Shown: positions 12,609 through 35,233, numbered from the stretch's first letter. The stretch: 64,000 nt of DNA from a virus (IMGVR_UViG_3300042874_000443:32001-96000); one strand, 5' to 3'. The notes: generated by a model not told the origin, from the sequence alone. Numbers and translations are program-made.

Positions 12609-13538
12609 TCAGGCTTTCATATAGCGCAGGCCTTTGGTGGCTCCAATTGTGCCACCAACGGACGCGAGAAGATCGGGGAGTGACATGCCGACGCCCGGCA
12701 CGGTGATGTGACGGCCGAGAAGCTTTTCGAGGCCCATGCCTCCGAGCGCACCGAGGCCGCCGCCGAGAAGGCCGCCGCCGGCCATACCGCCGAACGTGCG
12801 CGCGGCAGCGCCGGGACCGTGCTTGACGCCCTGTTCTACGACGCTGTAGCCGGGGATCTCTCCCTTCAGGATGTCGCTCACAGGCTCACGTTCGACGTGC
12901 TCGCTCTGTTTCAGCGTCGGCTGCAGCATCTGTGCGCCTTGCAGTGCCCAGGGTGGGATGTCTTGGGACGTTGCGTCAAGCGCGTACGGCGCTCCTGGTG
13001 GCACAGAGGGCGCCGCCGTTTCTTCCGCTTTTTCGCCGAGAAGCTTGCCGGCCGTGCCCATCGTGAGAGTGCCGAGGAGGGCGCCTAGCTCGGGGTTGTT
13101 GAGGTAGCGGCGCCCCAGGTTGAATCCGGCGTAGCCGCCGATCGCGGGACCCGCTACCGCGGGAAAAACGGACGAGAGGCTGCCGCCCTTGAAGATGCTC
13201 GTCAAACGCGACAGGCGGTCCATCACACCCGGCGAAGAAGGTGCCGGTGCGGAGGGCGCGGCTTGGCGCGCAGCCATTGCGCGTTCGATGTCGCTCATAC
13301 GTTGCGTCAGCTCGCCGCCTTGCTGTTCGATGAGATTGGCGCGTTGTCCGAGACGCCCGTGGAGGGCACCTGCACCAGCGCCCATTGCGACGTCGCGTAG
13401 TGGGTGATCGTCACCGCTGACGAGACTCGTGAGTCCACCGAGCGCTCCACCCGCAAGCGCTCCGCCCAGTGGAGAGTTCGTCAGCAACTTGCTGACGTCC
13501 ACAGGCAGCGCAGCGATCTTGAAGCGTTCGACGGTCAT
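12609..13538 (-). CDS. Glycine-zipper membrane polyprotein
   Basis: MTVERFKIA start; three GxxxG hairpin modules. Confidence 0.75.
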   Translation of the reverse strand: MTVERFKIAALPVDVSKLLTNSPLGGALAGGALGGLTSLVSGDDHPLRDVAMGAGAGALHGRLGQRANLIEQQGGELTQRMSDIERAMAARQAAPSAPAPSSPGVMDRLSRLTSIFKGGSLSSVFPAVAGPAIGGYAGFNLGRRYLNNPELGALLGTLTMGTAGKLLGEKAEETAAPSVPPGAPYALDATSQDIPPWALQGAQMLQPTLKQSEHVEREPVSDILKGEIPGYSVVEQGVKHGPGAAARTFGGMAGGGLLGGGLGALGGMGLEKLLGRHITVPGVGMSLPDLLASVGGTIGATKGLRYMKA

Positions 13539-14548
13539 CAGTTCATCATCTGCTGCTGCTGCGGCTGTTGCTGTTGCGGCATCATCTTCTGACCCAGCGC
13601 ACCGCCGGCCATCGAGCCGACCATGTCAGTGGCGGCGCCGCCGATGCCGCCGGTCATCTTCGGAAGCGCCTTGCCCGCCACCCCTTGCAGCATCTTGCCG
13701 CCAGCGCCGCGTGCGAGCGCGCCCGCGCCTGCGCGAAGGGCGGTTCCACCGAGTAGTGCGCCTACGAGTGGAAGGATCGCCTCTTTGATCTGGAACGCAG
13801 CCGCAGCCGCCTTGATGCCGAGGTTGTAGTTCTCCTCGAGTCCTGCTGCCTTTGCAGCGAACGGCGACGTCGCGTGCATGCGATCGAGCGCCGCTTGTGG
13901 AAGCGGCGGCGGACCCTTCGGCCCCTTTGCGGCCGCCGGGATCGGTGGCGGCTTTGTCGGACGACCGCCGCCCATCACTGATGCAGCAGCAGCCGCGGGT
14001 GACATGGGGCCGCCGGCACCGCCGAAGATGGCGGCCTTCTCGCTGAGGCCGAATGCTGCGAGCGCTGCGTGCTTGCCGCGCAAACGATCGATCGTGCTGC
14101 GGTCGTCTTTGCCGCCGAGATGACCACCGATCGCAGCGCCGCCCACGCCACCGATCTGTTTGCCGAGATTCGCGCCCGCCTCTGGATTCATGTGAAGGGC
14201 CTGCGCGAGTAGGCTGCCGAGACCTCCCCCTGCGAAGCCGCCAACCGAGTGCCCGATGCCGGCGTCGATGGCTGCGTCGAGACCGCGCCCGGGATCGGCG
14301 CCAAGACCTGCACCGATCGCAGCGCCCGCCTGTCCGCTCAGCGGACCGAGCGCACCTGCTTGACCCATGCCGGACCCCAGACCGCCGATGAGCGCACCCA
14401 TCCCGCCCTGGTTCGCGAGCTTCTCCTCGTGCCCTCGGGGCTCACGTTCCACGATGATGTTGACGCCAGGACCGCCGTGCTCGCGCGTGTTCCTCTCGGC
14501 GCCCTTGACGAGATCCGCGATGAACTTGTCGAAGAAGCTATCGGACAC
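13538..14548 (-). CDS. Glycine-zipper polyprotein with internal leader motifs
   Basis: EEKLA, RGKHAALAAFGLSEKAA and NYNLGIKAAAAAFQIKEA separate Gly-rich modules; poly-Q tail. Confidence 0.75.
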   Translation of the reverse strand: MSDSFFDKFIADLVKGAERNTREHGGPGVNIIVEREPRGHEEKLANQGGMGALIGGLGSGMGQAGALGPLSGQAGAAIGAGLGADPGRGLDAAIDAGIGHSVGGFAGGGLGSLLAQALHMNPEAGANLGKQIGGVGGAAIGGHLGGKDDRSTIDRLRGKHAALAAFGLSEKAAIFGGAGGPMSPAAAAASVMGGGRPTKPPPIPAAAKGPKGPPPLPQAALDRMHATSPFAAKAAGLEENYNLGIKAAAAAFQIKEAILPLVGALLGGTALRAGAGALARGAGGKMLQGVAGKALPKMTGGIGGAATDMVGSMAGGALGQKMMPQQQQPQQQQMMN

Positions 14549-14558
14549 GCGGGACTCC

Positions 14559-16916
14559 TTACGCGACGAGGTGCAGTTCGATGACGTTGAGCGGCTTCGG
14601 CAGGCCGATCGCGCAGTAGATGAGCACGCGGTCGCCTGACGTCGGCGAGACGTCGAGGCTCGTGATCTCGAACGACGTCAGCGGCGCACCGATCTTGGCG
14701 ACCGTGCGCAGAAGCAGCAACTGCGACCCCGTGATAAGAGCACCGTGGAGCTGCGTCAGCGTGTCGACGGTGACGTTGTACTGGCCGAGGAAGTCTTCGA
14801 GGATGTCGACGAAGAACAGCGACACGAAGTCGAAGTTCTTGACGACCGAGAACTCCCCCGACTCGAGCGTCGACGGGTCGGTGGTGAGCTGGTGGATCGT
14901 GTACGGCAGCGACGTTGTCGTCTGCTGCGCGAACACGTACCAGCCACCGTTCGAGATGTCGGTGAGCTGGCTGTCGGTGAAGTACGTGTTCGAGTTGAAG
15001 ATCTGGCTGACACCGGCGATGCCGATGTTGGTGAACCCCTGCTGCGACGGAAGGCCCGCCGTCATGCCGCCGACCGCACACGCCAGGTAGAACCCAGGCT
15101 GGTTGTCGCCGTCGGTCACGCCCGCGACGTCGCAACGATCCGGCCACACGAGGATCGTGCGCTTGGAGTTGAACGACTGTGCGACCGCGACCAGGTCCGT
15201 CACCTGCTGGCTCTTCGAGAGCGTGCGAACGATCTGGAAGTTGATCGTAGTGAGGCCGACGAGAGCGCCGCCAATGCGCTTCACGCCGTGGGGCAGCTCG
15301 TTCATGACCGTCGAGCTGTCCTGGCCGTTGTTCACGATCTGCAGGCGCTGGTCACTGATGACGTTGTTCACGACAAGCGTCGTGAATACCGTCGCATCCG
15401 TGATCGTGGCGTTGGGGTCGACGGGGATCTGGATCAGGTCACCCGCAGCGACGCCGCTCGCGACGAACGTCCCGCTCGGGTCCTTCAGGATGAGGTAGAG
15501 GTCGTCGCCCGCGGCTGTCGTCGTACCGACGAGAGGTGCCGATGCGATGCGCACGGTGACACCATCCGCCTCGAGAATCGCGCAGGTGATGTCAACGGCG
15601 CCTGCGCTCGCGAACGGCGTCGCCGTGTCGACTTCGAGAATCGCAGCCGTGGCCACCGACGCGATCGGATAGTCGCCGAGCGCGACCACACCCGCTGCAC
15701 TGGTCACGGTGACACGCAAGATGTCACTCGGGATCACGCCGTTGGTGATGAGGCTCGCGATGCCCGTGAGCGTGATGCGGACGATCGCGGTTGGCGCAGT
15801 GCCGGCAACCTGGATTGATTCACCCGTTGCCGATGGTTCGATGATCGTCTTGGTGATGGGCAGCGTGCCGTTGCCGATGACGACACGGAAGCGCTGCGGA
15901 CGGCCGTGCACGTCGTCAGGCAGTGCAAGCCCGACGCAGTCCGAGTTCCACATCGCGAAGATCGGGATGTCGGTCGTCAGCGGGATGATGGCGTAGATGT
16001 CCGGGCGCGCGGAGATGAGGTCACGCACTTGCGTGTGCCCCACCAGGTCATCTGACAGCACGCCGATGAACTGCACGACTGAGGTCGTGTTTTGGAGCGC
16101 CACGAACGCACCCGCGGCGAGCGGGTTGCGCGCGTCGATGCGCCCGATCTTCGAGAGGATCTCGTCCGTGGATTCGATCGTGTCGAGATCCACGAGGTCC
16201 TGACGGAGCGAGATGTACTGCTCGTAGACCACCGCGTACGACACCACGTGGGTGCCCTGGTTGGTGACCGGCAACGTCACACCGCCCGAGATTCGGGTGA
16301 TGTTTCCGTTGGTGGTGACGAACGACGAATCGATCTGGACGTCGTTGATCTGACGCTCGATGCGGAACACCTGCGCGATGCCCGGAACGAACAGGCCGCC
16401 GGTGACGTCCGAGGTCACCGTGAGCTGTGTGTCCGACACGACGGAGGCGACCGTGCGCGAGATGAAGTTCACGCCGTCCGAGATCGTGATGCGGTCGCCT
16501 GGCAGCACGCGCGTGTTGCCGGTGTTCCACAGCGCGGTTGCCGAATCGATCACGTTCGGCGTGGCGACGGTGGTGACGCCGTCTGCGCCGCTTGCGATGA
16601 TCACGCGCGCGTTGTCGAAGAAGATCGCGACACTGTCACCGTCGAGCAGGGCTCCCACCTCGTTGTTGGGGGGCTCCGCCACGACGATGTAGTTCGGCCC
16701 CACGGGAGTTGCCGTTGCCGGGTTCCCTTCGAGCACGCCGTAGGGCGTCGCCACCAGGATGTCGGCCTTGTCGGCGTAGTCCGTGGTTCCAGGTTCGAAG
16801 TAGTCCTGGATGTGGAAGGCCGGGCCCACCACGAGGCAGTTGAGATCCGGGGACGTCGGCGTAACCGTCGGCGTGGCCAGGTCCTGGTAAACAAGTACGA
16901 CCGGTCGAATGGCCAT
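14559..16916 (-). CDS. Tail sheath protein
   Basis: 785 aa; MAIRPVVLVYQ N-terminus; C-terminal PSQQGFTN...IHQLTT...EFSVVKNFDFV...LPKPLNVIELHL sheath pattern. Confidence 0.85.
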   Translation of the reverse strand: MAIRPVVLVYQDLATPTVTPTSPDLNCLVVGPAFHIQDYFEPGTTDYADKADILVATPYGVLEGNPATATPVGPNYIVVAEPPNNEVGALLDGDSVAIFFDNARVIIASGADGVTTVATPNVIDSATALWNTGNTRVLPGDRITISDGVNFISRTVASVVSDTQLTVTSDVTGGLFVPGIAQVFRIERQINDVQIDSSFVTTNGNITRISGGVTLPVTNQGTHVVSYAVVYEQYISLRQDLVDLDTIESTDEILSKIGRIDARNPLAAGAFVALQNTTSVVQFIGVLSDDLVGHTQVRDLISARPDIYAIIPLTTDIPIFAMWNSDCVGLALPDDVHGRPQRFRVVIGNGTLPITKTIIEPSATGESIQVAGTAPTAIVRITLTGIASLITNGVIPSDILRVTVTSAAGVVALGDYPIASVATAAILEVDTATPFASAGAVDITCAILEADGVTVRIASAPLVGTTTAAGDDLYLILKDPSGTFVASGVAAGDLIQIPVDPNATITDATVFTTLVVNNVISDQRLQIVNNGQDSSTVMNELPHGVKRIGGALVGLTTINFQIVRTLSKSQQVTDLVAVAQSFNSKRTILVWPDRCDVAGVTDGDNQPGFYLACAVGGMTAGLPSQQGFTNIGIAGVSQIFNSNTYFTDSQLTDISNGGWYVFAQQTTTSLPYTIHQLTTDPSTLESGEFSVVKNFDFVSLFFVDILEDFLGQYNVTVDTLTQLHGALITGSQLLLLRTVAKIGAPLTSFEITSLDVSPTSGDRVLIYCAIGLPKPLNVIELHLVA

Positions 16917-21734: not shown

Positions 21735-22670
21735 TCAGACGAACGGCAGGTCGATGCGCTGCGTCGCCAGCGTGTTGCCGATACCGATGCCCGGAGCTGC
21801 GTAGCTCCAGAACTCGATGATGTCGGCTTCCTGCTTGATGTACAGGGTTGCGTCCTGCAGCAGGAAGAACACGCCGAGGTAGTTCTGCGGCGCGAACACG
21901 TAGACCGAGCGGCGCGTGCCGCCGGCGACGTCGTCGACGATCTCGCGCTTGATGGTCGAGACCACCGGGATGCCCCACAGCTTCTCCTCGGCCTCGATGC
22001 CGAGGTCGTAGTGGCGCGACGCGACGTCGTTGCCGACGCTGGTCGCCGGCAGGTCGAGCGCCTCGTAGTACGTCGACTTGCTCATCAGCAGCTTGCCGAT
22101 GGGCTGGCGACGGTTGACGAGGCCCTGGAAGCCGAGCTTGAACGCGCTCGAGTTGAACGCACCCGCCGCCGTGATCTGCGCCGGCGCCAACGCGAGGATC
22201 GCGTTGATGGTGTCGGTGAACTTCGTGTCCTCCTGGTCGGCCATGTCCTTGACCGAGTTGTCGGACAGGATCTTGCGGATGTCGTTCTGGTACGTCATCA
22301 GCTCGAACTTGTTCTTGGTGAAGCGCTGCGACTCCGTCTTGCCGAAGTAGACGGAGAAGCGGCGACCACGGAACCACGTACGCTGCGCGGTGCCGTTGAA
22401 CGGCACGAACGTGGCGACGGAGTCGGGCTCCTTCTCGACGATCTTCTTGGGCTGGTCGGTGTTCTCGTCGCGATCGATCTCGTCGTCCGCCAGCATGACT
22501 GGCTCGATGATCTCGCGCGCGAAGGACTCCTGACGGAGCTTCTGGCGGATGAAGGCGGTGCCTTCGGCTTCGGCTTCTTTCGTCCGTCCATCCTCGACCT
22601 TGCGGACGAAGTTGGAGTTGATGAACTGAGCCGAGACCTGCTGGGTCTGTGTCTTGTACGCTGCCGACAT
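21735..22670 (-). CDS. Major capsid protein (HK97-fold)
   Basis: 311 aa; AAGGAG RBS; strong codon bias; FIRQKLRQESFAREII, KLWGIPVV; downstream of protease/scaffold genes; 3' hairpin. Confidence 0.8.
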   Translation of the reverse strand: MSAAYKTQTQQVSAQFINSNFVRKVEDGRTKEAEAEGTAFIRQKLRQESFAREIIEPVMLADDEIDRDENTDQPKKIVEKEPDSVATFVPFNGTAQRTWFRGRRFSVYFGKTESQRFTKNKFELMTYQNDIRKILSDNSVKDMADQEDTKFTDTINAILALAPAQITAAGAFNSSAFKLGFQGLVNRRQPIGKLLMSKSTYYEALDLPATSVGNDVASRHYDLGIEAEEKLWGIPVVSTIKREIVDDVAGGTRRSVYVFAPQNYLGVFFLLQDATLYIKQEADIIEFWSYAAPGIGIGNTLATQRIDLPFV

Positions 22671-22698: not shown

Positions 22699-23163
22699 TC
22701 AGAGGGCTGCGGTATCGCCGCCGGTGTAGAACACGACGATCGTGCCGTCGGTCGCGGTGTTGTCCTGGAGGACCTCACCGATGATCTGGTTGGTGGCGAC
22801 AGCGACCTGCCACTTGCCGGCGCTGAACGTCAGCTTGGTGCCCGGTGTGTAGACGCCCGCGTTGAAGTTCGACGGGTCGAGCTTGAACTCCGCGTTCATG
22901 CGGAGGCCGACGACCTTGTGGACGAACTGCGAGGAGAAGTCGTCGTTGCCGGCGACCACGATCCACGTTGAGACCGGGTTGGTCGTCGCGCGGTTCGGGG
23001 TCGTCGCTGCGACGGCCTTGCCCGTGGCATTGACCGTGACGACCGTGCCCATGGGCAGGAGGTCATCCACGTTGGGTACGGTCTGGTTGATGATGAAGGA
23101 TTCGTCGATTGCGCCTTCACGTGGCCAACCGCGCAGAACGTCGAACTTGCTGTTCAGGATCAT
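22699..23163 (-). CDS. Capsid decoration/cement protein
   Basis: 154 aa immediately upstream of MCP; GTVV...GKAVAA...YTPGTKLT...IIGEV beta-tulip-like; GGAGG RBS. Confidence 0.55.
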   Translation of the reverse strand: MILNSKFDVLRGWPREGAIDESFIINQTVPNVDDLLPMGTVVTVNATGKAVAATTPNRATTNPVSTWIVVAGNDDFSSQFVHKVVGLRMNAEFKLDPSNFNAGVYTPGTKLTFSAGKWQVAVATNQIIGEVLQDNTATDGTIVVFYTGGDTAAL

Positions 23164-24798: not shown

Positions 24799-24821
24799 GG
24801 GCTGTTCACTGAAAAACAAAC

Positions 24822-26564
24822 TCAAGTCAACACGATGGCTCCGAGCGCTTCGGCGACCCCATCCAGGCTCGCTGCTGACGCCACCTTGATACTCGAAAAG
24901 TCACACGAGTGCGTCGTCGGTAACGCGCATTCGATGAGATGCACGATCGACGCTTGGGACGCCGATTTGGCCACCATCTCCGTGATGTCGGGGATGTCGT
25001 AGCCCTCGTCCGTACGCATCGTTCCACCCGGGCGCTTGCCGAGTGTGGCCATACCGAGCGCTCCTGCACCGATTGCAAGAGGTGTCTTGAATCGACGCAT
25101 CCAAGGGAATGCGGTGAGCGCTTTGTATCCGCCCAATAGTAGACCAGTACCACCGAGCACCTTGCCGATATGCGCACGTGTCACGGCGTCTTGCGCATCG
25201 ATCGCTGCACCGCGTGTCGTTTCGTATGGCCCCATGTGTAGCACGTCTGTCGTGGGCGCTGCATCAGGACGGAGCCCAGCACCTTCGGGAACGAGACGGC
25301 GGTAGAGCATCTCGCCGACGTACGCACGCTTCTCGTTGACGCGCCCGAAGTAGCCGTGCAGCTCTTTGGCGATCTTCGAAGACTCGAGCGCGCCCCCGTC
25401 GATCACTTCGTCGAGAAGCTCTGGACGTTCCGCGAAAAGTCCTAGCGACCAACGTGCGGCGGCCGCCACCTTCGCGACCATCACAGTGGTTGGCGCGAGC
25501 GCGACACCCGCGAGCTTGCTCATCGCGAGCGGAACAAACTCCGCGTCTTTGAGCACGACGCCGTACGCGGCTGCCGCACTGAGCACCTCACCCAGAGGCC
25601 ATGCGCGCAATGCGTTGACGTCGATGCTCGCGGCCTTCGCGAGGCTTGGGCCGGCGTGGTCACGGAACTTCACGATGAACGACTTCTCGTCCGGTGTGAG
25701 CGTGCTCGACGCCAGAGGCTCCGCACGGATCACCTTGTCGATGTCCGAGAGCTTCTGCGTGGCTCCGCTCTTGAGCGTGAGGCGCTCGGTGACTTCACCG
25801 AGATCGGCCGACAGGCGAACCGTTGCAACATCCGCGACCTTCTTGAGTGTGTAGCCGGTGCGGTCCGCGGGACGGAACACACGGCTGATGTCGAAGAAGT
25901 CGGGCGACGGGTTGTGGACGTAGTCCTTGAACCCGTGCTCGTCGACAACGTTCATCGCGAACTTCACGTGGTCGCAGTAGTCCGCACGGGTCGGCGCTTC
26001 GTTGCCACAGCGTGCGCACACGTCGCGCTTGATGCGGCAGCCCATGCTGACAGGTACGAACTCGCCATCGCTCGCACGCTTGACCCACTCGGGGTCCTTG
26101 TCGTTGTCGACCGAGACGAGAAGCTCCACGCGGTGCATGCGCGGGTTCCAGAACGCCTTCTTCACCACACCCGATGCTTTCGACGGGTCGCGGTTCGCGT
26201 GGTGCTTGAACGCGTGGGCGGGGTTCTTCTCGAACGAGGCGTAGTGCTCGGTCAGCTCTTCGCCGGGCGGTACGAACCACCGGCGATTGATCGACGCGAT
26301 CTTGCCTCGTGCGGGAACCGGGAATTCAGGGAAGCCGTCGCCGTTGCGGTTCGGGCCGTACGTCTCTTCGGCGCCGAGTGCGTTGAGCAGCATCGCCGTC
26401 TTGCCGGGCTCGGGCGCGACGTGCTTGATGTAGTCGAGAGCCTCGGAGGCGTACTTCGAGACGCGGCTCGTGTCGACGCTGCGGCCGCTGTTCCACGGCA
26501 GGATGATCTGGACCGTGGGTTCTCCGGTCGCGAAGTAGTCGTCCAGCTCGATGATCTTCTTCAC
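24822..26564 (-). CDS. Prohead/capsid maturation serine protease with zinc finger and C-terminal membrane-like extension
   Basis: NRNGDGF, FKHHAN (His), VPVSMGC (Ser) followed by CARCGN...YCDH; position upstream of MCP. Confidence 0.8.
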   Translation of the reverse strand: MKKIIELDDYFATGEPTVQIILPWNSGRSVDTSRVSKYASEALDYIKHVAPEPGKTAMLLNALGAEETYGPNRNGDGFPEFPVPARGKIASINRRWFVPPGEELTEHYASFEKNPAHAFKHHANRDPSKASGVVKKAFWNPRMHRVELLVSVDNDKDPEWVKRASDGEFVPVSMGCRIKRDVCARCGNEAPTRADYCDHVKFAMNVVDEHGFKDYVHNPSPDFFDISRVFRPADRTGYTLKKVADVATVRLSADLGEVTERLTLKSGATQKLSDIDKVIRAEPLASSTLTPDEKSFIVKFRDHAGPSLAKAASIDVNALRAWPLGEVLSAAAAYGVVLKDAEFVPLAMSKLAGVALAPTTVMVAKVAAAARWSLGLFAERPELLDEVIDGGALESSKIAKELHGYFGRVNEKRAYVGEMLYRRLVPEGAGLRPDAAPTTDVLHMGPYETTRGAAIDAQDAVTRAHIGKVLGGTGLLLGGYKALTAFPWMRRFKTPLAIGAGALGMATLGKRPGGTMRTDEGYDIPDITEMVAKSASQASIVHLIECALPTTHSCDFSSIKVASAASLDGVAEALGAIVLT

Positions 26565-27121
26565 GGTAGAAGGCCTCGCAACAGGCGCGAAGCTTCACCG
26601 CGGTGGATGATGAGACGAACGAGCGCCGCGTGTTTGGCGTCCGGGTCCGTCAGCTCGTGACACGCAGCCTCGAGTACGTCGTCAACCAGGATCGCAGCTG
26701 CGATCTTGTCGGGCGTCATCTCTTCTGGGGCCGGAGGCAGCGTCGTCGGGGCGCTCGAAGCGATCGGATGCGGTGCACGTTTGAACGCGTTTCCGAGCGC
26801 TTCCATACCGCCGACACCCGCAGCTGTCAGAAGTGCCTGGTTGCGCGCGTCGCGCAAGACGTCCGCGCTGTGTCGCTGCGCGTCTCCCAAGAACATGTGG
26901 CCTGCGGCGAGAGCGGGAACGCCGAGACCGACGCCCCAGCCGAGACCGCGTTGCAGTGCGCTGATGGCCGCGGGGTCGATCGCGGCTTGCTTGAACAAGC
27001 CGAACGCAGCGAAGTCGGCCATCGCGAGCTTCTCGCGCAGCGCCTGCGACGCAGGACGTGCCGACGCCACCTTCTCGGCGAGAAGGACGGACGTGGCGAG
27101 AGTCTTGGCGAGGGTCGACAT
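26561..27121 (-). CDS. K-x-A membrane/core protein
   Basis: EKVA, EKLA, FAAFGLFKQA then GLGWGVGLG hydrophobic module, DKIA. Confidence 0.7.
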   Translation of the reverse strand: MSTLAKTLATSVLLAEKVASARPASQALREKLAMADFAAFGLFKQAAIDPAAISALQRGLGWGVGLGVPALAAGHMFLGDAQRHSADVLRDARNQALLTAAGVGGMEALGNAFKRAPHPIASSAPTTLPPAPEEMTPDKIAAAILVDDVLEAACHELTDPDAKHAALVRLIIHRGEASRLLRGLLP

Positions 27122-27123
27122 GA

Positions 27124-27570
27124 TCAGCGAAGTGCTTGCGCAACTCCCTGGCTCAGTTCAGGCGGCAGACCATGGAGACTGGTGCCGACGCCTGTTAGGC
27201 CGCCGAGCAACGCGCCCAGTACGCCCGCAGGAAGCGCGCTTTGCTGTTGCTGGTAGGGGTCGTTCGACATGAGCTTGGGTGCCATTCCGATGCCCGCACC
27301 GACGGCGGCAGGCATTGCAGCCCGACGCAAGAGTGCCATGAGCGCAGGGCTCTCGGCGATCTTCTCGTTGGTCAGCGTGGCGTAGGCCGCGATGCCGTCA
27401 GCGATCGAGCGTGCTTCCTTGCGACGCATGAAAGCCTTCATGGCGATCGTTCCGACGGCTTCTTTGATCGTCAGCTCGGGAAGTCCGAGCATTGCGCCGG
27501 CGATCTTGTGGAGACCTTGTGCGGCGACAGCGGCTGTGACGTGCGAGGGGATGAGGTCGTCGAGGTTCAT
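27124..27570 (-). CDS. K-x-A glycine-zipper protein
   Basis: ATG at 27570 (MNLDDL); HKIA, EKIA then GxxxG helices. Confidence 0.7.
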   Translation of the reverse strand: MNLDDLIPSHVTAAVAAQGLHKIAGAMLGLPELTIKEAVGTIAMKAFMRRKEARSIADGIAAYATLTNEKIAESPALMALLRRAAMPAAVGAGIGMAPKLMSNDPYQQQQSALPAGVLGALLGGLTGVGTSLHGLPPELSQGVAQALR

Positions 27571-27572
27571 GG

Positions 27573-28670
27573 CTATCCTTCGGCACGTGTCCAACGCGCC
27601 CAACCCGGGCCAGCTTCCACCGTACCGCCATCACTGGGATAGCGATAAGTGGGTTCATATGGATTGATGGGTCCGGCGGAAGCGGATGGTGTCGCCAAGC
27701 GTTGATGCAGGGCACCACCAAGCCCTCCGACCGCAGCACCGCCAAGCGCCCCGCGCATGGCACCGTGCATCCGGTCGTCAGGGTTGGCCAGCGCTCCGCT
27801 GACTGCACCCACGCCCCCGCCCATCAAAGCTCCGCGTCCGAGCGCCGGCAGTAGTTCTTCGATACCTGCACGCTTGTCTCCACCGCCTGTGACGGCGCGC
27901 TCGGAGTCGGCGAGCAGCTTGATCGACATGTAGTCCGGGCCCGAGCCGGACATGACAGCCTGGCGAAGGAACGAGCGTACCGCGTTCTTGTCGGTGGAGA
28001 GCACCGGCGCGAAGCGGGTCATCGTGTGATAGGCCTCCATCAACGTCGCGTCGTCGGCGCTCGCGAGGACCGAGTCGGTCTTCTTGAGGTCGCCGATGAT
28101 CGCTTCGCGCGCGGACGCATCGCCGGCGTGTCCTGCGGCCTCCATCGCTTTGTTCGCGATGTCGCGCAGGAGACCGACGCTGGATTTGCCGATCTCCGTG
28201 CCTGCTGCCTCGATCGCCTTTCGGCCGCCGAGGCTGAACGGGTCCTGGCGCTGTCCGAACTCTTGGCCGAACAGTTTCTTCTCGACGAGTTTGGAGAGCC
28301 CCGAAGCGACACCGCCTGCAGGGGCGCCGCCGATGGCGCCGAGGCCGCCCATCACACCACTGCCGAACGACTTGGCGGGCCCTGACTGCCCCGCGCTTTG
28401 TGCGCCCGAGCGCGCGCGGCTGAACAGCGCGTAGAGTGGATTGTATGGCGTCATCGCGCCCGAGGGCGGCTGCGGCGCTGCCCCCGTCTTGAACGTTCGG
28501 TCTCCCTGGTTGAGCGCATGCTCGGTCGAACGCGACCGCTCCAACGCCTTGTGGACGATTCCGGGGATCATCATGCCGACCGCGAGGGGCAGCATGACGC
28601 CCGCGCGCTTCTCGACATGTCGACGCATGCCTTCGCGCGCGACCAGTTCGAGGACATCGCTCAGCTGCAC
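27573..28670 (-). CDS. Multi-module glycine-zipper core protein
   Basis: EKRA, FKTG, DKRA delimit modules; helical RFAPVLSTDKNAVRSFLRQ domain; start GTG 28670 or ATG 28628. Confidence 0.7.
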   Translation of the reverse strand: MQLSDVLELVAREGMRRHVEKRAGVMLPLAVGMMIPGIVHKALERSRSTEHALNQGDRTFKTGAAPQPPSGAMTPYNPLYALFSRARSGAQSAGQSGPAKSFGSGVMGGLGAIGGAPAGGVASGLSKLVEKKLFGQEFGQRQDPFSLGGRKAIEAAGTEIGKSSVGLLRDIANKAMEAAGHAGDASAREAIIGDLKKTDSVLASADDATLMEAYHTMTRFAPVLSTDKNAVRSFLRQAVMSGSGPDYMSIKLLADSERAVTGGGDKRAGIEELLPALGRGALMGGGVGAVSGALANPDDRMHGAMRGALGGAAVGGLGGALHQRLATPSASAGPINPYEPTYRYPSDGGTVEAGPGWARWTRAEG

Positions 28671-29605
28671 TGCGTCCTCGCGTAGGCGGCGCCGTTCTTG
28701 AGACGCATCGCTTCCTTCGCGATCTTCACCATCGTGGCGAAGACACGGTTGGTCTCGGTGTCGTCTACGAGGTGTCGGTCGGCGAGTGTGGCCGTCTTGG
28801 TTGCAGCGTCGTCGAACGAGAGCTGTGGGAGGTTTCGCGCAGCCTTGACCATGTTCAGCACGACGATGCCGACCTGGTCGTTGTGTAGCGCGAGCGCGTC
28901 TTTCTCGAACGCGTCGGGCGACGGTGCGCCGTGCGCGCGGTTGAGGTGCTGCTGCAGGTTGGCGAAGGCGTCTTCGAACGCCCACTCGGCCTGCTTGTAC
29001 TGGTCCTCGAGCACGTCGGCGAGCTTGTTCATGCGGCGCGAGCGGAACGCAGCTTCCTTGGGCTCGTCCTTTTCAGGAGGCTTCGGCGGCGCCTTCTTCT
29101 TCGGCTTGTCCGCGTCGTCCTTGGCCTTCTGTTTCTCGCCCTTGGGGAACGGCCCGTCGTTGTCGTCATCGTCATCGTGGACGTGGACTTCGGGATCGTC
29201 ACCGTGGACGTGAACGTTCTGGTCTGCGCCGCCGTGCATCTCGTCGGGCAGGGGACCTTCATCACCGTCGGGCTCGGTGTGCGGCATTCCGCCAGGCATC
29301 GCGCCCGCTCCTGCGTCCATGTGCGGGACGTCGGTCTGTCCGACGATCTGCTGCATGATCTGGCGCGGGTCGATCGGGTCGAACTCGTGCGTCATGTCGG
29401 CGCCGCCCTGCGCCTTCTGTTGATCCATCAGACGCAGGAACGCCATCGTGTTGGCGGACTGCACGAGGCGCGCGATCTGGTCGGGGTTCAGCTCGCCGCC
29501 CATGGCTTCGGCCGTCGCCGCGTCTGCGAGCTTGTCACCGTGCATGAAGCGATCGACGACGCGTTCCGCCATCTGATCGAAGTCTTGCTCTCGAAATGCG
29601 CGCAT
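28661..29605 (-). CDS. Head/core protein with acidic His-rich disordered middle
   Basis: ATG 29605 overlaps upstream stop; LNPDQIARLVQSAN; VHVHGDD repeats; KEA/KLA/KQA/KTA sites. Confidence 0.7.
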   Translation of the reverse strand: MRAFREQDFDQMAERVVDRFMHGDKLADAATAEAMGGELNPDQIARLVQSANTMAFLRLMDQQKAQGGADMTHEFDPIDPRQIMQQIVGQTDVPHMDAGAGAMPGGMPHTEPDGDEGPLPDEMHGGADQNVHVHGDDPEVHVHDDDDDNDGPFPKGEKQKAKDDADKPKKKAPPKPPEKDEPKEAAFRSRRMNKLADVLEDQYKQAEWAFEDAFANLQQHLNRAHGAPSPDAFEKDALALHNDQVGIVVLNMVKAARNLPQLSFDDAATKTATLADRHLVDDTETNRVFATMVKIAKEAMRLKNGAAYARTQCS

Positions 29606-30276
29606 CAGTGAAGAATCTCCCCATGGGGCACGACGTCTTCTGCGTGCCACGTCATCTCACGGTGCTTCAACTTGAGCAACGTTTCGGCCACGCTGGGGAT
29701 GGTCCGCTTGGCGGCTGCACCGGCCGCGCTCGTTGCAGTCTTCATCAGCTGGTGCGCGGCGACAGCGTCGGCGCTCGCGATGTTCGATGCGCGCAGCGTA
29801 CTCAGGCCACGGAAGTACGTCTCACGCATGACCTGCTGGTTGACGTGGTCAGGCTCGAGCTTGGAGGGCAGGCCGCACAGGTGCGCGATTGCTTCGACGC
29901 CGTCGAAGTGCAGCGCGCGTTCGAGCAAGAGCTTGCCCGCGTGCGTGCCTTTGTACTGGTGCACCCAGCGCATCATCTCCAGCTTGTCACGGAACATGAA
30001 GAGGTTGCAGCAGAGATGACGGTAGGGCGCGAGGACTTCGAGCGGGAAGCCCAGACGCTCGCTGATAGCGTTGTCCGATGCGCCCGCGATGATCCACGCC
30101 TGAAGCAGCTCGCGCTCGAAGGTGTCTTCGTACGCGTCGACCACACGGATGATCGTATCGCCTCCGATGTTGGCGTGCCGGAGCTGCCACAGCGCGGCCT
30201 CGAATGACTGCGCGGGCGCATCGGCTGCAAGCAGCGCTGCGCGATAGCGGTCGTCTGGCTGGCGCTCACGTCGCAT
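29605..30276 (-). CDS. Hypothetical protein
   Basis: 223 aa, overlaps both neighbours. Confidence 0.7.
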   Translation of the reverse strand: MRRERQPDDRYRAALLAADAPAQSFEAALWQLRHANIGGDTIIRVVDAYEDTFERELLQAWIIAGASDNAISERLGFPLEVLAPYRHLCCNLFMFRDKLEMMRWVHQYKGTHAGKLLLERALHFDGVEAIAHLCGLPSKLEPDHVNQQVMRETYFRGLSTLRASNIASADAVAAHQLMKTATSAAGAAAKRTIPSVAETLLKLKHREMTWHAEDVVPHGEILH

Positions 30277-33226
30277 GGTCGTCGGGGTCCTTGACCGATT
30301 GCACGCCTCGGCTCAAGCGGAGCACGAGGTCACCGAGGCCCTTGAACGTGGACTGGAGGTTCTCTTCCAGGCCCGAGAAGGTCTGCTCGCCGATCTGCGG
30401 CTTGAGATCGGACTCCTGCATCCACAGCGTCAACATGACGCGCGCGAGGTTGTCGACCGCCTTCTCGAGGTTCGGCAGGTACTGACCAACCACGCCATGC
30501 AATGCCGGCGACTGTGCGAGCGTCGCCACGGCAGCGGCGTCGAACATGTCGGCTGAATGCAGCTGCGCTGCTTGATCGAGGAAGTGCGGATTGACCTCTT
30601 GCGGCAACGTCTGAGCGTTCGGACCGTTGGGCGGCATCATTGCCATCGGCGGCTGTTGCTGCTGTCCTTGCGACGGATCCATGCCGGGCTGTCCGCCCAT
30701 GCCCCCCATCATTGATGGGTCTTGTCCCATGCCCGGCTGTCCGCCCATGGACGGGTCCATGCCCATCGACGAATCCATGCCTGGTGCGTATGCGCCAGGA
30801 CCTGCATCAGGGCCGAACATTCCACCAGGGCCAGCGTCGACGGTACCAGGTGGCCCCATGTCAGGCTGTCCGCCCATCATTGACGGGTCGCCTGCAGCCG
30901 GTGGGAACGCGCCACCTGGCGGCATGCCCGGCGGAACGGCAGCGCCCATCGACGGGTCCTGAGGCGGCTGGCCCATCCCCGCGGTCATGCCCGGCGGCGT
31001 GCCCGGAGCACCGGTTGCGAGGTTCATCGAAGACGGAGGTGCGCCCATCGCTTGCGTCTGCACGCTCGGCGCGGGCGGTGCGCCGCCTGCGATCTCGGAC
31101 GATCGTTGCAGCAACATCTGGATGGTCTGCTGCTTCTCGACCAGCTTCTGCATCTCCTGCTGGATGTGCTGGTCCATCTCCATTGCGGCGAGGTCCAGCG
31201 GTGCAGGCGGAGGCGGAGCAGGCGGCGGCCCCATCGCGGCCATCGCTGCGTCCTGTCCGAGGTTTGGGTCGCCTTCCATGCCGGGGTCGCCGCCCGGGGG
31301 ACCTGCGTCGGCGCCACCGTTCGACGGCGGCGACTTCTTCTTCGGCTTGTCACCGCTGTCCGACTTCTTCTTGTCACCGCTGTCCGACTTCTTCTTGTCG
31401 TCGTCTGCGGCGAGCTTGTCGAGTCGCATCTGCACGTGCGCGAGCTGCGTCTTGGACGCGATCCACGCTACGGCAGAACGGGCGGATGCTGCCTTCACGA
31501 GAAGCGCCTCGGCGTCATCGACTGAGATGACGCACGCGTGCGCGAGCTTCTTGAGCGCGGGCACGAAGTTCATCGGCGCCATGCCGTTGATGGAGAACTG
31601 GTTGGCGCCGGCGTCCTTGATCGACACCTTCTTCGCGCCGACTGCCGACAGCATCGACGAGACGCAGGCCTGCAGATCGAGCGCGGATGTGAACCACGCG
31701 CGTTCGTTGAGACGCTCCTTGAGCGGGACCCAGATGAAGTCCGGCGGGAGGTAGACGATGTCCGCGCCCTTCGGCATCCAGATCGCGCCGTACGGGTGTG
31801 TTGGGTCGGTGGAGATCGTCTTCTCGGGACCGTAGTCGCCTTCAGTCGCACGGATGCGACGAACGCCGTCCGAGCCCGTCGAGATCGACTTGATCGTGAG
31901 CGGCACCGTGGCCTGGAACGTCGTGCCCTTCTGACGCACGAAGAATCCCTTGCCGGCTTTCGGTTCACCGCTGACGTCGGTGAACAGGCGCTTGTGCAGT
32001 GCGCCGGCGATGTCGTCGGCGACGTCATCGCGTCCCACGAGTTTCGAGGGTTCGATGTAGTCGCCGTTGTCGAACACGGCGAGGTAGGGCTTCGCGTTGT
32101 AGCCGCGACGGATCGCGTAGTCCGCCTCATTGGGCCGACCTTGTGGATAGACCTTGATGGACCCGCGATGCTTCGGATCGTAGTACGAGTTCTCGACGAG
32201 AGGGTTGTGGCCCGGGATCGCTGGACGGCGTCCGTAGCGCGTTCCTTCATCGAACAGGTCGATGGGGTTCGACATCACGAACGCGTGACGCTCTTTGCCG
32301 TCGGACGCGTAGAGTGTGTAGCAGCCCGGCTGGTTGGGCTCGGTCCACCGCTCGTATGGCTGCTCTTGCACGGCCATGTTGCGATCGAGACGCTCGTCCT
32401 TTGCTGCGAAGCCCTTCTTCCGGACGCCGGCGTATGCCTCTCCAGCCCTGTCGCCGAAGATGCGCTTGAAGTCGGTCGGCGTGTTGTCCGCGTCAGCGAT
32501 CCAGAGGGCGCCGCCGTACTGCTGCTTCGCCGCGACTTTCTCGGCACGTAGCGCAAGCGCCGATGCAAGCGCCTTCACGCCGTACGTCGCCGCCGCTTGC
32601 TTCATCAGGCGCGGATTCTTCTCGAGCAGCTTGGTGTACGCGACCTTCAGCTTGTTCGGTGCGGCCGCGAGGAGCGACGGCAGCATCGGTGCGTGGTCCT
32701 CCGCCACCTTTTCGAGCGCCTGCGTGTTGATCACGCGTGCGACATCGAAGAGCGCCTTCGACACCCACGCGGCGTACGAGAAACGTCCGGTGATCGGCGG
32801 CACGACGACGTTGCGGATGTCGACGTCGGTGTAGAGCGTCTCGGGGGTCTTGACGCCGGTCCCGAGCGACGAGAGTGCGTTCTTGTCGATCTCGTCGAGC
32901 CACCCCTTGTTCAAGGGCAGGAAGACGTTCATCGCCTTGTGAAAGAACACCTCGAGCGGCTTGATGGCGTTGTCGACCATCACGACCGGGATGTAGATCG
33001 GCTGTCCGTGGTGCAGCACCACGAACGCACCGACGCCCGATCCCTTGTCGATGTCGACGTCGAGCACCTTGAACGTGACGACGTCCTGCAGCACGTCGGG
33101 CATGCGCGACGACAACAGGTTGTACGCCATTTCGGACATACCTTGCTCGAACAAGGCGGATTCTTGATCCGGGCCCGCACCCATTCCAGCTTGAAGCTGT
33201 TGCGTTCGGGGAGACATTGCCGGCAT
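30266..33226 (-). CDS. Large (986 aa) head/core protein with long Met/Gly/Pro/Gln low-complexity region
   Basis: ATG 33226 overlaps HNH stop; EKVA twice, DKLA; GMDPSMGGQPG-type repeats. Confidence 0.75.
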   Translation of the reverse strand: MPAMSPRTQQLQAGMGAGPDQESALFEQGMSEMAYNLLSSRMPDVLQDVVTFKVLDVDIDKGSGVGAFVVLHHGQPIYIPVVMVDNAIKPLEVFFHKAMNVFLPLNKGWLDEIDKNALSSLGTGVKTPETLYTDVDIRNVVVPPITGRFSYAAWVSKALFDVARVINTQALEKVAEDHAPMLPSLLAAAPNKLKVAYTKLLEKNPRLMKQAAATYGVKALASALALRAEKVAAKQQYGGALWIADADNTPTDFKRIFGDRAGEAYAGVRKKGFAAKDERLDRNMAVQEQPYERWTEPNQPGCYTLYASDGKERHAFVMSNPIDLFDEGTRYGRRPAIPGHNPLVENSYYDPKHRGSIKVYPQGRPNEADYAIRRGYNAKPYLAVFDNGDYIEPSKLVGRDDVADDIAGALHKRLFTDVSGEPKAGKGFFVRQKGTTFQATVPLTIKSISTGSDGVRRIRATEGDYGPEKTISTDPTHPYGAIWMPKGADIVYLPPDFIWVPLKERLNERAWFTSALDLQACVSSMLSAVGAKKVSIKDAGANQFSINGMAPMNFVPALKKLAHACVISVDDAEALLVKAASARSAVAWIASKTQLAHVQMRLDKLAADDDKKKSDSGDKKKSDSGDKPKKKSPPSNGGADAGPPGGDPGMEGDPNLGQDAAMAAMGPPPAPPPPAPLDLAAMEMDQHIQQEMQKLVEKQQTIQMLLQRSSEIAGGAPPAPSVQTQAMGAPPSSMNLATGAPGTPPGMTAGMGQPPQDPSMGAAVPPGMPPGGAFPPAAGDPSMMGGQPDMGPPGTVDAGPGGMFGPDAGPGAYAPGMDSSMGMDPSMGGQPGMGQDPSMMGGMGGQPGMDPSQGQQQQPPMAMMPPNGPNAQTLPQEVNPHFLDQAAQLHSADMFDAAAVATLAQSPALHGVVGQYLPNLEKAVDNLARVMLTLWMQESDLKPQIGEQTFSGLEENLQSTFKGLGDLVLRLSRGVQSVKDPDDHAT
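31346..31398. repeat. 24-bp in-frame tandem repeat (DKKKSDSG twice)
   Basis: cttgtcaccgctgtccgacttctt repeated. Confidence 0.75.
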
Positions 33227-33705
33227 CAGTTGTTCCTCTCGTGCGGGCAGGTCCCGTACAGCCCCTTGGCCATGTTGCAGTTGTGGCAGAGCGTCCGAAA
33301 CCCAGACGGAAAACCGTTCGTGATCAACCAAGCATACAGGTTGGCGTTGTTGATCGTTTTGCGGTGTTGATTGCCCCCGCCATCAATGTGGTCGATGCAC
33401 AGAAACAAGAACTCGCGTTCGCCACAACACGCACAGCGGTCACCGTAGTGCTCGATCACTTGGCGGCGACGGTGTTCGTTCCGAATTTTGGCCGTGTCTG
33501 CGTACATGCGGAGGCATGAATCACAGAAACGTTTGGCTGTCGTCTTCTCTCCACCACATGCGCAGCAACGTCCGCTGTCCTCCAACACCTTTGCATGGTG
33601 ATTGTTTCGACAGCGTTCCGTACAGAAAACCTGCGTGCTTCGTCGTGGCGAGAACGACGTCTCGCAGCTTCGACACACGTTGGTGGTTGTTGCGGACGTT
33701 GACAT
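33226..33705 (-). CDS. HNH homing endonuclease with Cys-rich N-terminus
   Basis: CACCGE...CIDHIDGGG...TLCHNCN; lower GC. Confidence 0.85.
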   Translation of the reverse strand: MSTSATTTNVCRSCETSFSPRRSTQVFCTERCRNNHHAKVLEDSGRCCACGGEKTTAKRFCDSCLRMYADTAKIRNEHRRRQVIEHYGDRCACCGEREFLFLCIDHIDGGGNQHRKTINNANLYAWLITNGFPSGFRTLCHNCNMAKGLYGTCPHERNN

Positions 33706-33731
33706 AAGGGCTAAGCGACCTGTTTAGGTCC

Positions 33732-33902
33732 TCACGAAGAACTTGGGAACGATACGACTTTCGGAAGGTTTGCGTCGGGAAGGCCGCCCAGCTGCTTGGT
33801 CTTCTGTGCCTTGAGCGAGCCGAGCGTCGGGGTGATGATCTCGCCGAGCTTCGCTACGACGGCTCGAAGGCCCGCTTCGCGGATGTGACGCGGAAGGCTC
33901 AC
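33732..33902 (-). CDS. 56-aa peptide with leader-like N-terminus (missed by ORF track)
   Basis: MSLPRHIREAGLRAVVAKLGEIITPTLGSLKAQKTKQLGGLPDANLPKVVSFPSSS*; GTGA overlap. Confidence 0.6.
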   Translation of the reverse strand: MSLPRHIREAGLRAVVAKLGEIITPTLGSLKAQKTKQLGGLPDANLPKVVSFPSSS

Positions 33903-35233
33903 GCGCGCTGCGCGGCGTCGATGCGACGGAACATGTCGCGGAGCGACGCCTCCTTCTTGTCGTCGTCCTTCTTCTCGTTCTTGTCGCCGCCGCCGTCCTT
34001 CTTGGCGTCGATCTTGTCTTGGATGAACGACGGGAGTCCGCCCTTGCTCTCGCCCTTGTCGTCGTCCTTCTTCTCGTCCTTCTTGTCGTCCTCCTTCTTC
34101 ATGAACGGCGGAAGGTCATCGGCCTGTTTGGTGCCCTGGTTGCCCGAGCGCCCGTCGTACGCACCGGGGCGCGAGTGCGTCGCCTCCGGGTTGTGCTCGT
34201 TGTAGTTGCTGCGCGAGCCGGGCGGCAGGTTCGCCGGCGCTGCTGCCGTGCGATCCGCTGCTTCCTTCTGCAGGCCGCGGAGGTAGTACGCCTTCTCCTC
34301 GGTGGTCAGGCCCATGCACGCGCGCACGGCCGCGATCTTGGCGTTCTCGTCGAGAGAGCCCGGCAGATACTCGTGCACCTCGGCCGCGACCTTCTTGAAG
34401 AGAGCGATGTACGGGTCTTCGGAAGCGGCCTTGCCCGAGTGCTCGGTGAGCGAGTTCGAACCGCCCGGCGTCTCGGCCGGCTTGTTCGGCTGCGGGGTCT
34501 CGCGACCGATCACGGCCGGACCCGTCACCTGCTTCATCATCTCGCCCAGGGCGCCCTGGTGCGGAAGAACGGCGTAGCCGGGCGGACGCTGCGAAGCGTC
34601 CATCTTCGCTTCGGCCGACGACATCTCCTTGTTGCCCTTGTCGCCGCCGAGGATGGTCGAACCCTCGGCCGACTTGCGGAAGAGGTCCGAGAGCGACGCG
34701 GTACGCGAGTGCTCCTGCACCGAGTTGTCCTTGGAGTCGGTCTCCTTCGGTTTGTTCGGCTGCTCTTCTTCCTTGCCGACCGCGCCCGGACGCGTGTCGA
34801 CATCGGTCTTGCCGAGGCTGTTCTCGGCGTAGCCCGGCGGACGCTGCGACGCGTCCATCTTGGTCTCACCCTGTGGCGATTCGCCTTCGGTGTTCCCCTT
34901 GTCGCCACCCTCGATGGTCGAGCCCTCGGCAGCCTTCGTCATGAGCTGCGTCGCGTTGTAGTCCGCGACCTTCATGACGTCGTCCCACGTCGCGAGCTTG
35001 TTCCACCCGGCAGCCTTGAAGCCCGGCTGCTTCTTGATCCAGTCCGAAGCGCTGACGAGGTCCGTCGCGATCTTGTGGGTCGTCTCGCGACCGACGCCCT
35101 TCAGCGGGTCGATGTCGACGCGCTCGGCGATGTAGTCCGCGACCTTCGCCGCAGTGGTCTCGTCAGGGAATGCGGCAATGCCGCCGTTGATTAACGCGGT
35201 CTGGATGCCTCGGACGTACGCGTGCTTGAACAT
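33899..35233 (-). CDS. Head/core protein with two ~87-aa internal repeats
   Basis: GAGGAG RBS, ATG 35233 (MFKHAYVRGIQTAL leader); repeat AEGSTI.GGDKGN...KMDASQRPPGYA...QPNKP.ET...NS..EHS. Confidence 0.8.
   Translation of the reverse strand: MFKHAYVRGIQTALINGGIAAFPDETTAAKVADYIAERVDIDPLKGVGRETTHKIATDLVSASDWIKKQPGFKAAGWNKLATWDDVMKVADYNATQLMTKAAEGSTIEGGDKGNTEGESPQGETKMDASQRPPGYAENSLGKTDVDTRPGAVGKEEEQPNKPKETDSKDNSVQEHSRTASLSDLFRKSAEGSTILGGDKGNKEMSSAEAKMDASQRPPGYAVLPHQGALGEMMKQVTGPAVIGRETPQPNKPAETPGGSNSLTEHSGKAASEDPYIALFKKVAAEVHEYLPGSLDENAKIAAVRACMGLTTEEKAYYLRGLQKEAADRTAAAPANLPPGSRSNYNEHNPEATHSRPGAYDGRSGNQGTKQADDLPPFMKKEDDKKDEKKDDDKGESKGGLPSFIQDKIDAKKDGGGDKNEKKDDDKKEASLRDMFRRIDAAQRA

Follow-up and report, generated by a model that had tools for sequence, protein, structure and literature searches.

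A Lys-x-Ala motif concentrated in the head proteins of a large uncultured phage is the probable cleavage code of its gp21/assemblin-fold prohead protease

Do the head proteins encoded in a 64,000-nucleotide stretch of the viral record IMGVR_UViG_3300042874_000443 (hereafter the window, in which all positions are counted unless stated otherwise) carry, as a short, recurrent Lys-x-Ala motif (K-x-A), the signal at which the prohead protease of the same phage cuts? The window spans bases 32001-96000 of a 157,408-bp linear IMG/VR record with an estimated completeness of 84% and a G+C content of 61%. The source is a large tailed, uncultured phage with the structural genes on the minus strand, and a nucleotide search of the phage collection detected no close relative. 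The question goes back to an earlier note on this DNA, which held that K-x-[AG] punctuates the head proteins and that the serine protease encoded at 24822-26564 cuts at this motif, turning the head genes into a source of many mature peptides. The present analysis upholds the core of this proposal, namely the enrichment of K-x-A in the head proteins and its link to the protease; it does not bear out Gly at the P1 position, the enrichment in three of the proteins cited as examples and hence several of the cited substrates, the claim about leaders, or the mature-peptide picture. We regard it as probable that the prohead protease 24822-26564 recognizes K-x-A and cleaves at it; that K-x-A is cut, that this protein is the cutter and where the scissile bond lies are points that we infer from the evidence described here.

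K-x-A was counted in the translated curated gene set and compared with shuffles of each protein. In the head block (22699-35233; 13 proteins with corrected gene starts), 85 K-x-A were counted where 33.0 would be expected (z = 10.3), about 2.5 times chance, and Ala is found at position +2 after 36% of the 235 lysines. The excess persists when shuffling is restricted to 10- or 20-residue windows (z 9.8-10.5) and thus is not due to composition or to compositional boundaries where Lys-rich and Ala-rich segments co-locate. When all 400 residue pairs with gaps of 0-3 were scanned without bias, one gene block at a time, K-x-A came out as the strongest pair of the head block (78 vs 31.6 expected, z = 9.0; the runner-up has z = 4.7), whereas in the tail block (below 22699) and in the replication and RNA polymerase block (above 35410) K-x-A is not among the top pairs. 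Narrowed to K-x-A, the observation of the earlier note is upheld. Across the 187 open reading frames (ORFs) of the whole genome, nine show p < 0.01 for K-x-A, and seven of the nine are contiguous (23188-23541, 24179-24763, 24822-26564, 26561-27121, 27124-27603, 28661-29650 and 33899-35410).

The motif is residue-specific and directional given that, in the head block, the related pairs R-x-A, E-x-A, D-x-A, Q-x-A, K-x-S, K-A and K-x-x-A, as well as the reversed A-x-K, are at or below expectation. Gly, which had been included in the motif as originally formulated, is rejected because K-x-G is depleted in the same proteins (8 vs 20.6 expected, z = -3.1). K-x-[AG] is enriched in a subset of the proteins, nearly all of these cases being due to Ala rather than Gly. 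Among the other codes examined in the head block, [LI]-x-E yields z 2.4, [SAG]-x-E z -1.0 and [VLI]-x-A z -1.1; the motif differs from these T4, phiKZ and herpesvirus codes, in keeping with the specificity unlike x-x-Glu that had been proposed. When the same scan was applied as a positive control to gp67, gp68, gp21 and gp22 of phage T4, I-x-E and L-x-E came out as the top two gap-1 pairs, in agreement with the experimentally established gp21 code, and these pairs were not returned for other T4 structural proteins. The statement that the motif ends most leaders was too strong: K-x-A is present within the first 30 residues of 10 of the 37 structural-block proteins, compared to 16 of 150 others (Fisher p = 0.016), although several virion proteins indeed start with very short leaders of the form M-x(1-5)-[FA]-K-x-A.

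The protease gene and the relevant parts of its product are as follows.
24822-26564, minus strand: prohead protease precursor, 580 amino acids (aa), with a weak match to the PHROG head maturation protease; 15 K-x-A vs 4.6 expected, p = 0.001
26448-26456, minus strand: K37-Y-A39, predicted N-side self-cleavage site directly before the catalytic domain
25833-26447, minus strand: catalytic domain, residues 40-244, gp21/assemblin fold, AlphaFold2 predicted local distance difference test score (pLDDT) mostly >90
26199-26201, minus strand: His122, predicted catalytic His, invariant in 67 diverse homologues
26046-26048, minus strand: Ser173 of V-S-M-G-C, predicted nucleophile, invariant in 67 diverse homologues
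25968-26018, minus strand: C183-x2-C186-x10-C197-x-H199, putative zinc knuckle, all four residues invariant in the 67 homologues
25833-25841, minus strand: K242-V-A244, predicted C-side self-cleavage site, where the catalytic domain ends
24825-25832, minus strand: C-terminal extension, residues 245-580, with 8 more K-x-A and a Gly-rich hydrophobic stretch

The protein thus consists of a 36-aa N-terminal propeptide, the catalytic domain and, C-terminally, an extension of 336 aa. Residues 1-300 were modeled with AlphaFold2 from the 67 diverse homologues (38-64% identity to the query); the model has a pLDDT of 86 and is confident over residues 41-245. Among 48,161 PDB representatives, the best structural match of the model is T4 gp21 (5jbl; Z 10.1, root-mean-square deviation 2.7 Å over 127 residues), and herpesvirus proteases follow, namely those of varicella-zoster virus (VZV; 1vzv, Z 9.0), human cytomegalovirus (HCMV; 8j3s, Z 6.8) and Kaposi's sarcoma-associated herpesvirus (1fl1, Z 6.2). 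The top ten Foldseek hits are all herpesvirus proteases but are weak (probability 0.44-0.97, E ~0.01-0.09). At the sequence level, a Pfam scan of the 580-aa protein gave no family at E<=0.01, and thus neither Peptidase_S77 nor Peptidase_S21; a PDB sequence profile search with the protease alignment retrieved no protease, only designed coiled coils on the helical tail. PF03420 (Peptidase_S77) has no match genome-wide at E<=1, and the HK97-type S78 (PF04586) and ClpP-type (PF00574) families have none in the 157-kb record, which has an estimated completeness of 84%, with the controls matched. Given the lack of S78, ClpP and S77 matches in the genome, 24822-26564 is the only head-protease candidate found.

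Sequence conservation points to Ser173 and His122 as the probable catalytic pair. An hhalign comparison places Ser173 on Ser140 of T4 gp21, albeit weakly (E 0.06), and His122 lies just upstream of an A-N-x-D-P motif common with T4 gp21, where it follows the His85 region. The adjacent His121 is conserved in at least 90% of the homologues. As to a Ser-His-His triad, Ser173, His122 (with His121) and His199 are all conserved in sequence; His199 more likely belongs to the Cys-Cys-Cys-His (CCCH) cluster. This cluster is inserted after the strand that carries the Ser, is present also in phage G and in Catera, and marks this clade of proteases; it resembles a zinc knuckle and is a putative metal site. 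T4 gp21 lacks cysteine altogether. The identity of 24822-26564 as the head protease, which the earlier note had maintained, is supported by its fold and by the invariant SMGC Ser.

The sites predicted to flank the catalytic domain (SKYA before it and KKVA after it), along with further sites in the tail, were found as described in that note. Both K37-Y-A39 and K242-V-A244 are invariant across the window phage, Arash, D69 and phage G, and the Catera equivalents are K28-H-A and K219-T-A. On the N side, 66 of the 67 diverse homologues contain K-x-A (mostly K-x-A-S) 20-25 residues ahead of the domain; on the C side, the Lys is kept in 63 and the Ala in 64 of the 67. In the model, K37-Y-A39 falls in the segment with the lowest pLDDT (residues 35-37), and pLDDT drops directly after K242-V-A244. 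By comparison, the K-x-A inside the folded domain (at 55, 88, 135, 162 and 201) are not conserved. A K-S-A close to the C-terminus of the protease is also present in Arash and D69.

The relatives of the protease come from Vibrio phages D69, D181 and D148 (35% identity), Salmonella phage Arash (gp222), Bacillus phage G (gp19) and cluster C mycobacteriophages, and include some Gordonia and Rhodococcus phages. The catalytic domains of Arash gp222, D69 0270, phage G gp19 and Catera gp94 are 29-35% identical to that of the window protease, and these proteins not only have the same flanking K-x-A but are themselves, along with neighboring gene products, enriched in the motif:
Arash gp220: 10 K-x-A vs 3.0 expected
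Arash gp222 (protease): 7 vs 3.2
Arash gp223: 8 vs 3.0
Arash gp225: 7 vs 1.8
D69 0268: 11 vs 3.9
D69 0270 (protease): 8 vs 3.1
D69 0271: 10 vs 2.8
D69 0273: 6 vs 1.5
Phage G gp19 (protease): 8 vs 2.4
Phage G gp21: 7 vs 2.8
Catera gp94 (protease fusion): 18 vs 8.3

Metagenomic relatives are numerous, with 940 proteins in the collection clustered at 90% identity and 3,223 clusters at 50% identity (E<=0.001). In 149 representatives of 50%-identity clusters, K-x-A occurs 1300 times vs 566 expected, and 147 of the 149 are above expectation. The divergent tails that follow the catalytic domain in 141 diverse homologues contain 733 K-x-A vs 314 expected (z = 25). If positions are labeled on the assumption of a cut after Ala, the extended preference in these tails comprises hydrophobic residues at P6 and P5, Glu at P4, Lys at P3, Val, Leu or Ile at P2 and Ala at P1, followed by Ser, Ala or Glu at P1' and a hydrophobic residue at P2'; Ser is enriched 2.3-3.2-fold immediately after the motif Ala. 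The tie that the earlier note had drawn between K-x-A and the protease gene, like the identity of the protease, its flanking self-sites and a specificity distinct from x-x-Glu, is supported by the fold, the conservation, the replication in distant relatives and the T4 positive control.

Several of the relatives display additional features. In the cluster C mycobacteriophages, the homologous protease domain makes up the N-terminal part of a 1369-aa protein (Catera gp94, L004:8860-12969), the gene of which directly precedes the capsid gene. Catera gp94 differs from the window protease in that the protease domain is fused to an extension of about 1,100 residues, possibly as a fusion of protease and scaffold. 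Some of the metagenomic homologues (e.g., P0024, P0037 and P0038; ~945 aa) carry an intein/homing-endonuclease insertion, as judged from matches to the Pfam families Intein_splicing, Hom_end_hint and LAGLIDADG_3. Several 50%-cluster representatives align to the query protease in two or three separate stretches.

The prohead proteases of T4, phiKZ and SPN3US read x-x-Glu, with the specific codes S/A/G-x-Glu for phiKZ gp175 and A-x-Glu for SPN3US gp245 (PMC5694885, PMC10052503). The closest parallel of the window protease is T4 gp21 (MEROPS S77). The two proteins have the same fold (5jbl, Z 10.1), the Ser/His pair, with the weak alignment of Ser173 on Ser140 noted above, and the N-R-N...[YF]-P and A-N-x-D-P contexts; the gene is in both cases adjacent to scaffold-like and capsid genes, and a P3-x-P1 motif is dense in the core proteins and flanks the enzyme. 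The substrates of gp21 in T4 are gp22, gp67, gp68, gp23, gp24 and the internal proteins. The differences are that the window protease has no Pfam Peptidase_S77 match, that the window motif is Lys-x-Ala rather than Leu/Ile-x-Glu (z 10.3 for K-x-A vs 2.4 for [LI]-x-E), and that the window protease, unlike the Cys-less gp21, contains the CCCH cluster and, additionally, a 336-residue tail with a hydrophobic Gly-rich segment. By analogy in fold, catalytic residues, gene position and overall logic, the window protease appears to work like T4 gp21; for autoprocessing and for the cleavage of core proteins in the prohead, the argument comes from the conserved flanking motifs.

With phiKZ gp175 and SPN3US gp245, the window system has in common the large phage, a multisubunit RNA polymerase gene next to the head genes, many head proteins with multiple copies of the motif and an expected C-terminal autoprocessing; it differs in the code ([SAG]-x-E, z -1.0 here), with Ala in place of the acidic P1 and Lys in place of the small P3. 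Herpesvirus proteases (assemblin, MEROPS S21) cut (V/L/I)-x-Ala↓Ser at the M and R sites. The likeness to assemblin extends to the fold (VZV Z 9.0, HCMV Z 6.8), to the P1 Ala and P1' Ser that are predicted here, and to the release of the enzyme from a scaffold-linked precursor. The window protease nevertheless has no Pfam Peptidase_S21 (PF00716) match, and its P3 is Lys and not aliphatic as in the herpesvirus consensus ([VLI]-x-A, z -1.1). To our knowledge, all characterized enzymes of the gp21/assemblin fold read P3 and P1, two residues apart, and all gp21-like phage enzymes characterized so far cut after Glu.

We propose the following scheme, which follows T4 head maturation but with a new code and which the evidence favors. 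Incorporated in the prohead, the protease would release its catalytic domain through cuts at K37-Y-A39 and K242-V-A244 and would then chop its own tail and the scaffold-like protein 24179-24763 to short peptides able to exit the shell. It would also trim or fragment the internal head proteins 23188-24173, 26561-27603, 28661-29650 and 33899-35233 and remove short N-terminal leaders ending in [FL]-K-x-A from some virion proteins. The cut would be made after Ala, so that P3 is Lys, P2 mostly aliphatic, P1 Ala and P1' Ser or Ala; it is placed there because the characterized gp21/assemblin-fold enzymes recognize P3 together with P1 and because Ser is enriched after the Ala.

The candidate substrates, and the proteins that had been cited as such, are listed below.
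24179-24763, minus strand: scaffold-like protein, 194 aa, between the protease and capsid genes; 12 K-x-A vs 3.8 expected
23188-23541, minus strand: small protein; 5 K-x-A vs 1.4 expected
23686-23901, minus strand: small protein; 2 K-x-A
23898-24173, minus strand: small protein; 2 K-x-A
26561-27121, minus strand: small Gly-rich protein upstream of the protease; 6 of 7 lysines in K-x-A
27124-27603, minus strand: small Gly-rich protein upstream of the protease; 4 of 6 lysines in K-x-A
28661-29650, minus strand: 329-aa protein; 10 K-x-A vs 2.9 expected, of which nine lie within residues 185-312
33899-35233, minus strand: 444-aa protein starting M-F-K-H-A; 15 K-x-A vs 5.1 expected (expectation on the 503-aa ORF)
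21735-22670, minus strand: major capsid protein (MCP), 311 aa, 41% identity to the annotated MCP of Salmonella phage Arash
13538-14548, minus strand: protein cited in the earlier note; 7 K-x-A vs 3.1 expected, p = 0.03
27573-28670, minus strand: protein cited in the earlier note; 3 K-x-A; K-x-[AG] 4 vs 4.4 expected on the 470-aa ORF
30266-33226, minus strand: 986-aa protein cited in the earlier note; 10 K-x-A vs 6.8 expected

The gene order protease (24822-26564), scaffold-like protein (24179-24763) and MCP (21735-22670) is the same in Arash and D69, and the three small genes of 23188-24173 sit between the scaffold-like gene and the decoration and MCP genes. The many sites that the earlier note had seen in the 194-aa protein 24179-24763 are present (the 12 K-x-A plus one K-G-G), and cutting it at every K-x-A would yield 13 fragments of 4-26 residues. 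In 120 homologues of this protein, most of the motif Lys and Ala residues are 93-100% conserved; of the five lysines outside the motif, four are conserved at 52-72%. One of the K-x-A is swapped in most relatives for a K-T-A three residues away, a replacement that indicates motif turnover under purifying selection. The structural model of the protein is all-helical and of low confidence, with three low-confidence linkers, each containing one K-x-A, and the spacings between the motifs are not multiples of seven. A complex prediction for protease residues 40-246 with residues 1-75 of the scaffold-like protein scored 0.27 against a mark of 0.32 and neither supports nor opposes an interaction. The idea of a polyprotein that yields many mature peptides does not fit its most motif-dense member, an all-helical, low-confidence protein in the scaffold position; by analogy with T4, the fragments look like the products of scaffold disposal as for gp22 and not of functional-peptide production, and complete cutting of 24179-24763 would parallel the action of gp21 on scaffold gp22.

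The 329-aa protein 28661-29650 corresponds in sequence to D69 0268 and in gene order to Arash gp220. For 33899-35233, the true start is probably the methionine of M-F-K-H-A, to judge from the relatives, in which a 434-aa gene is called. This protein contains an internal duplication of ~85 residues; each copy follows a K-x-A, and both copies begin with K-[AS]-A-E-G-S-T-I and hold M-D-A-S-Q-R-P-P-G-Y-A. The three proteins that the earlier note had offered as examples fare less well: the enrichment in 13538-14548 is marginal, that in 30266-33226 is not significant, and 27573-28670 is at chance level. Both ends of 30266-33226 resemble Arash gp218 and D69 0266.

The MCP contains a single K-x-A, K31-E-A33 (22572-22580), which is conserved in Arash, D69 and 120 homologues and is a possible maturation site; copies elsewhere in the protein are few. 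These 120 MCP homologues contain 24 K-x-A vs 172 expected, but they are 72-100% identical to the query, and no depletion is seen in the MCPs of Arash, D69 and Catera; a depletion of K-x-A in capsid proteins is thus suggestive only.

Gly-zipper-like hydrophobic stretches, which are unusual for head genes, are detectable in 12609-13538, 13538-14548, 23898-24173, 26561-27603 and 27573-28670 and around residues 470-520 of the protease, on the basis of weak Pfam Gly-zipper_YMGG matches below the cut-off; the proteins that bear them may be membrane-active ejected proteins. Two small proteins encoded at a distance from the head block, 3460-3771 (minus strand) and one at genome positions 2711-2968 (plus strand, outside the window), are also enriched in K-x-A, one with 3 motifs in the first 18 residues and the other with 5 in 85 aa. 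Both are candidates for head cargo whose genes lie outside the head block.

Several considerations weigh against K-x-A being a cleavage code. No cleavage product has been observed for the window phage or any of its relatives. The virion proteomics of Arash, in which gp220, gp222, gp223 and gp225 are all highly covered, cannot confirm processing because it was performed with trypsin, gives coverage values only and scores 116 proteins as 'structural'. Many of the homologue counts are not phylogenetically independent. The MCP of phage G lacks K-x-A and its deposited chain comprises 280 of 282 residues, close to full length, so that capsid processing at K-x-A is not general. Finally, nine of the 12 K-x-A in the scaffold-like protein fall in predicted helices rather than linkers, and the flanking preference for hydrophobic residues at P6/P5, P2 and P2' fits an amphipathic-helix docking motif as well.

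The last two points lead to the best surviving alternative, under which K-x-A would form the core of an amphipathic helix for docking or capsid targeting, with the capsid interior, the scaffold or the protease as its binding partner, and any cut would be made elsewhere. The hydrophobic positions, at -3/-2, +1 and +4 relative to the Lys, indeed show helical spacing, and a leader ending in [FL]-K-x-A is common to several unrelated virion proteins. Helix packing, however, would be expected to enrich E-x-A, R-x-A or Q-x-A as well, and none of these is enriched; twelve docking motifs in 194 residues seem excessive; and the same statistical signature corresponds in T4 to real cleavage sites. Moreover, the two best-conserved sites flank the protease's own domain, the N-side one in a disordered linker, and gp21-type enzymes are known to self-cut at such flanks (PMC5694885). 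In view of this evidence, we consider the docking function unlikely.

Alternatively, the protease could use K-x-A but cut after the Lys, which would then be P1 with Ala at P2', in the manner of the HK97/SPO1-type proteases. HK97 gp4 cuts the capsid protein after a Lys, and sequence statistics alone cannot place the scissile bond. Against this stand the fold of the enzyme, which is that of gp21/assemblin and not that of the HK97 protease; the reading of positions i and i+2 as P3 and P1 by the characterized enzymes of this fold; the match of Ala at P1 and Ser at P1' to herpesvirus assemblin; and the variability of the residue after the Lys, unusual for P1', compared to the bias of the residue after the Ala toward Ser and Ala. 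A cut after Lys accordingly appears rather improbable. That the enrichment is a by-product of composition, coiled coil or shared repeats with no specific function is essentially excluded: the proteins are Ala/Lys-rich and helical, and designed coiled coils with K-K-I-A heptads weakly matched the profile tail, but the excess survives 10-residue local shuffling, is directional and residue-specific, is not seen in the other Ala/Lys-rich proteins that the genome encodes, shows site-by-site conservation, recurs in four cultured phages of unrelated hosts and, in the scaffold-like protein, does not follow a spacing of seven.

Recognition and cleavage of K-x-A by the prohead protease might extend well beyond the window phage. 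As a tentative generalization, which we see as a realistic possibility, the CCCH-marked proteases would form a large, mostly uncultured clade of more than 3,000 clusters at 50% identity with a common Lys-x-Ala↓Ser code, resembling herpesvirus assemblin and not the Glu-specific phage enzymes at P1 and P1' and including phage G, the cluster C mycobacteriophages, Arash and D69. We know of experimentally defined head-protease codes for only a few phage groups (T4, phiKZ/SPN3US and HK97). A literature search, which did not cover the phage G capsid paper (PMC7316594, 10.1016/j.jmb.2020.05.016), found no description of a Lys-x-Ala prohead-protease code, and none was found of a published cleavage specificity for Arash gp222, D69 0270, phage G gp19 or Catera gp94. 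If the cleavage code is real, Lys-x-Ala would be a new specificity within the gp21/assemblin fold, with the Ala at P1 and Ser at P1' matching assemblin. If it holds across the clade, the processed contents of the head, namely the scaffold, the Gly-zipper membrane-type proteins and the hydrophobic tail of the protease, would become readable from sequence, and annotators could predict scaffold, cargo and processed proteins in very common large environmental phages, the head genes of which are almost unannotated. The cultured relatives (Arash, Vibrio D69, phage G and the Bxz1-type mycobacteriophages) make the prediction directly testable by proteomics.

Other genes of the window are worth a brief mention.
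14559-16916: tail sheath
35965-37746, minus strand: remainder of the beta' RNA polymerase subunit
38614-42975, minus strand: fused beta/beta' RNA polymerase chain, 1453 aa

The beta subunit is fused with the N-terminal part of beta' (38614-42975) and the rest of beta' is encoded separately, an arrangement of the multisubunit RNA polymerase type. The RNA polymerase subunits were considered as substrates and rejected, given that K-x-A is not enriched in them (14 vs 11.2 and 1 vs 3.9 expected); their K-x-[AG] excess was traced to K-x-G. The Arash counterparts of these subunits rank among the most abundant proteins of the Arash virion preparation. The replication genes and the large terminase gene come after the RNA polymerase genes. 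The family A DNA polymerase encoded at 57807-60803 (plus strand) contains a uracil-DNA-glycosylase-superfamily domain N-terminal to the 3'-5' exonuclease domain.

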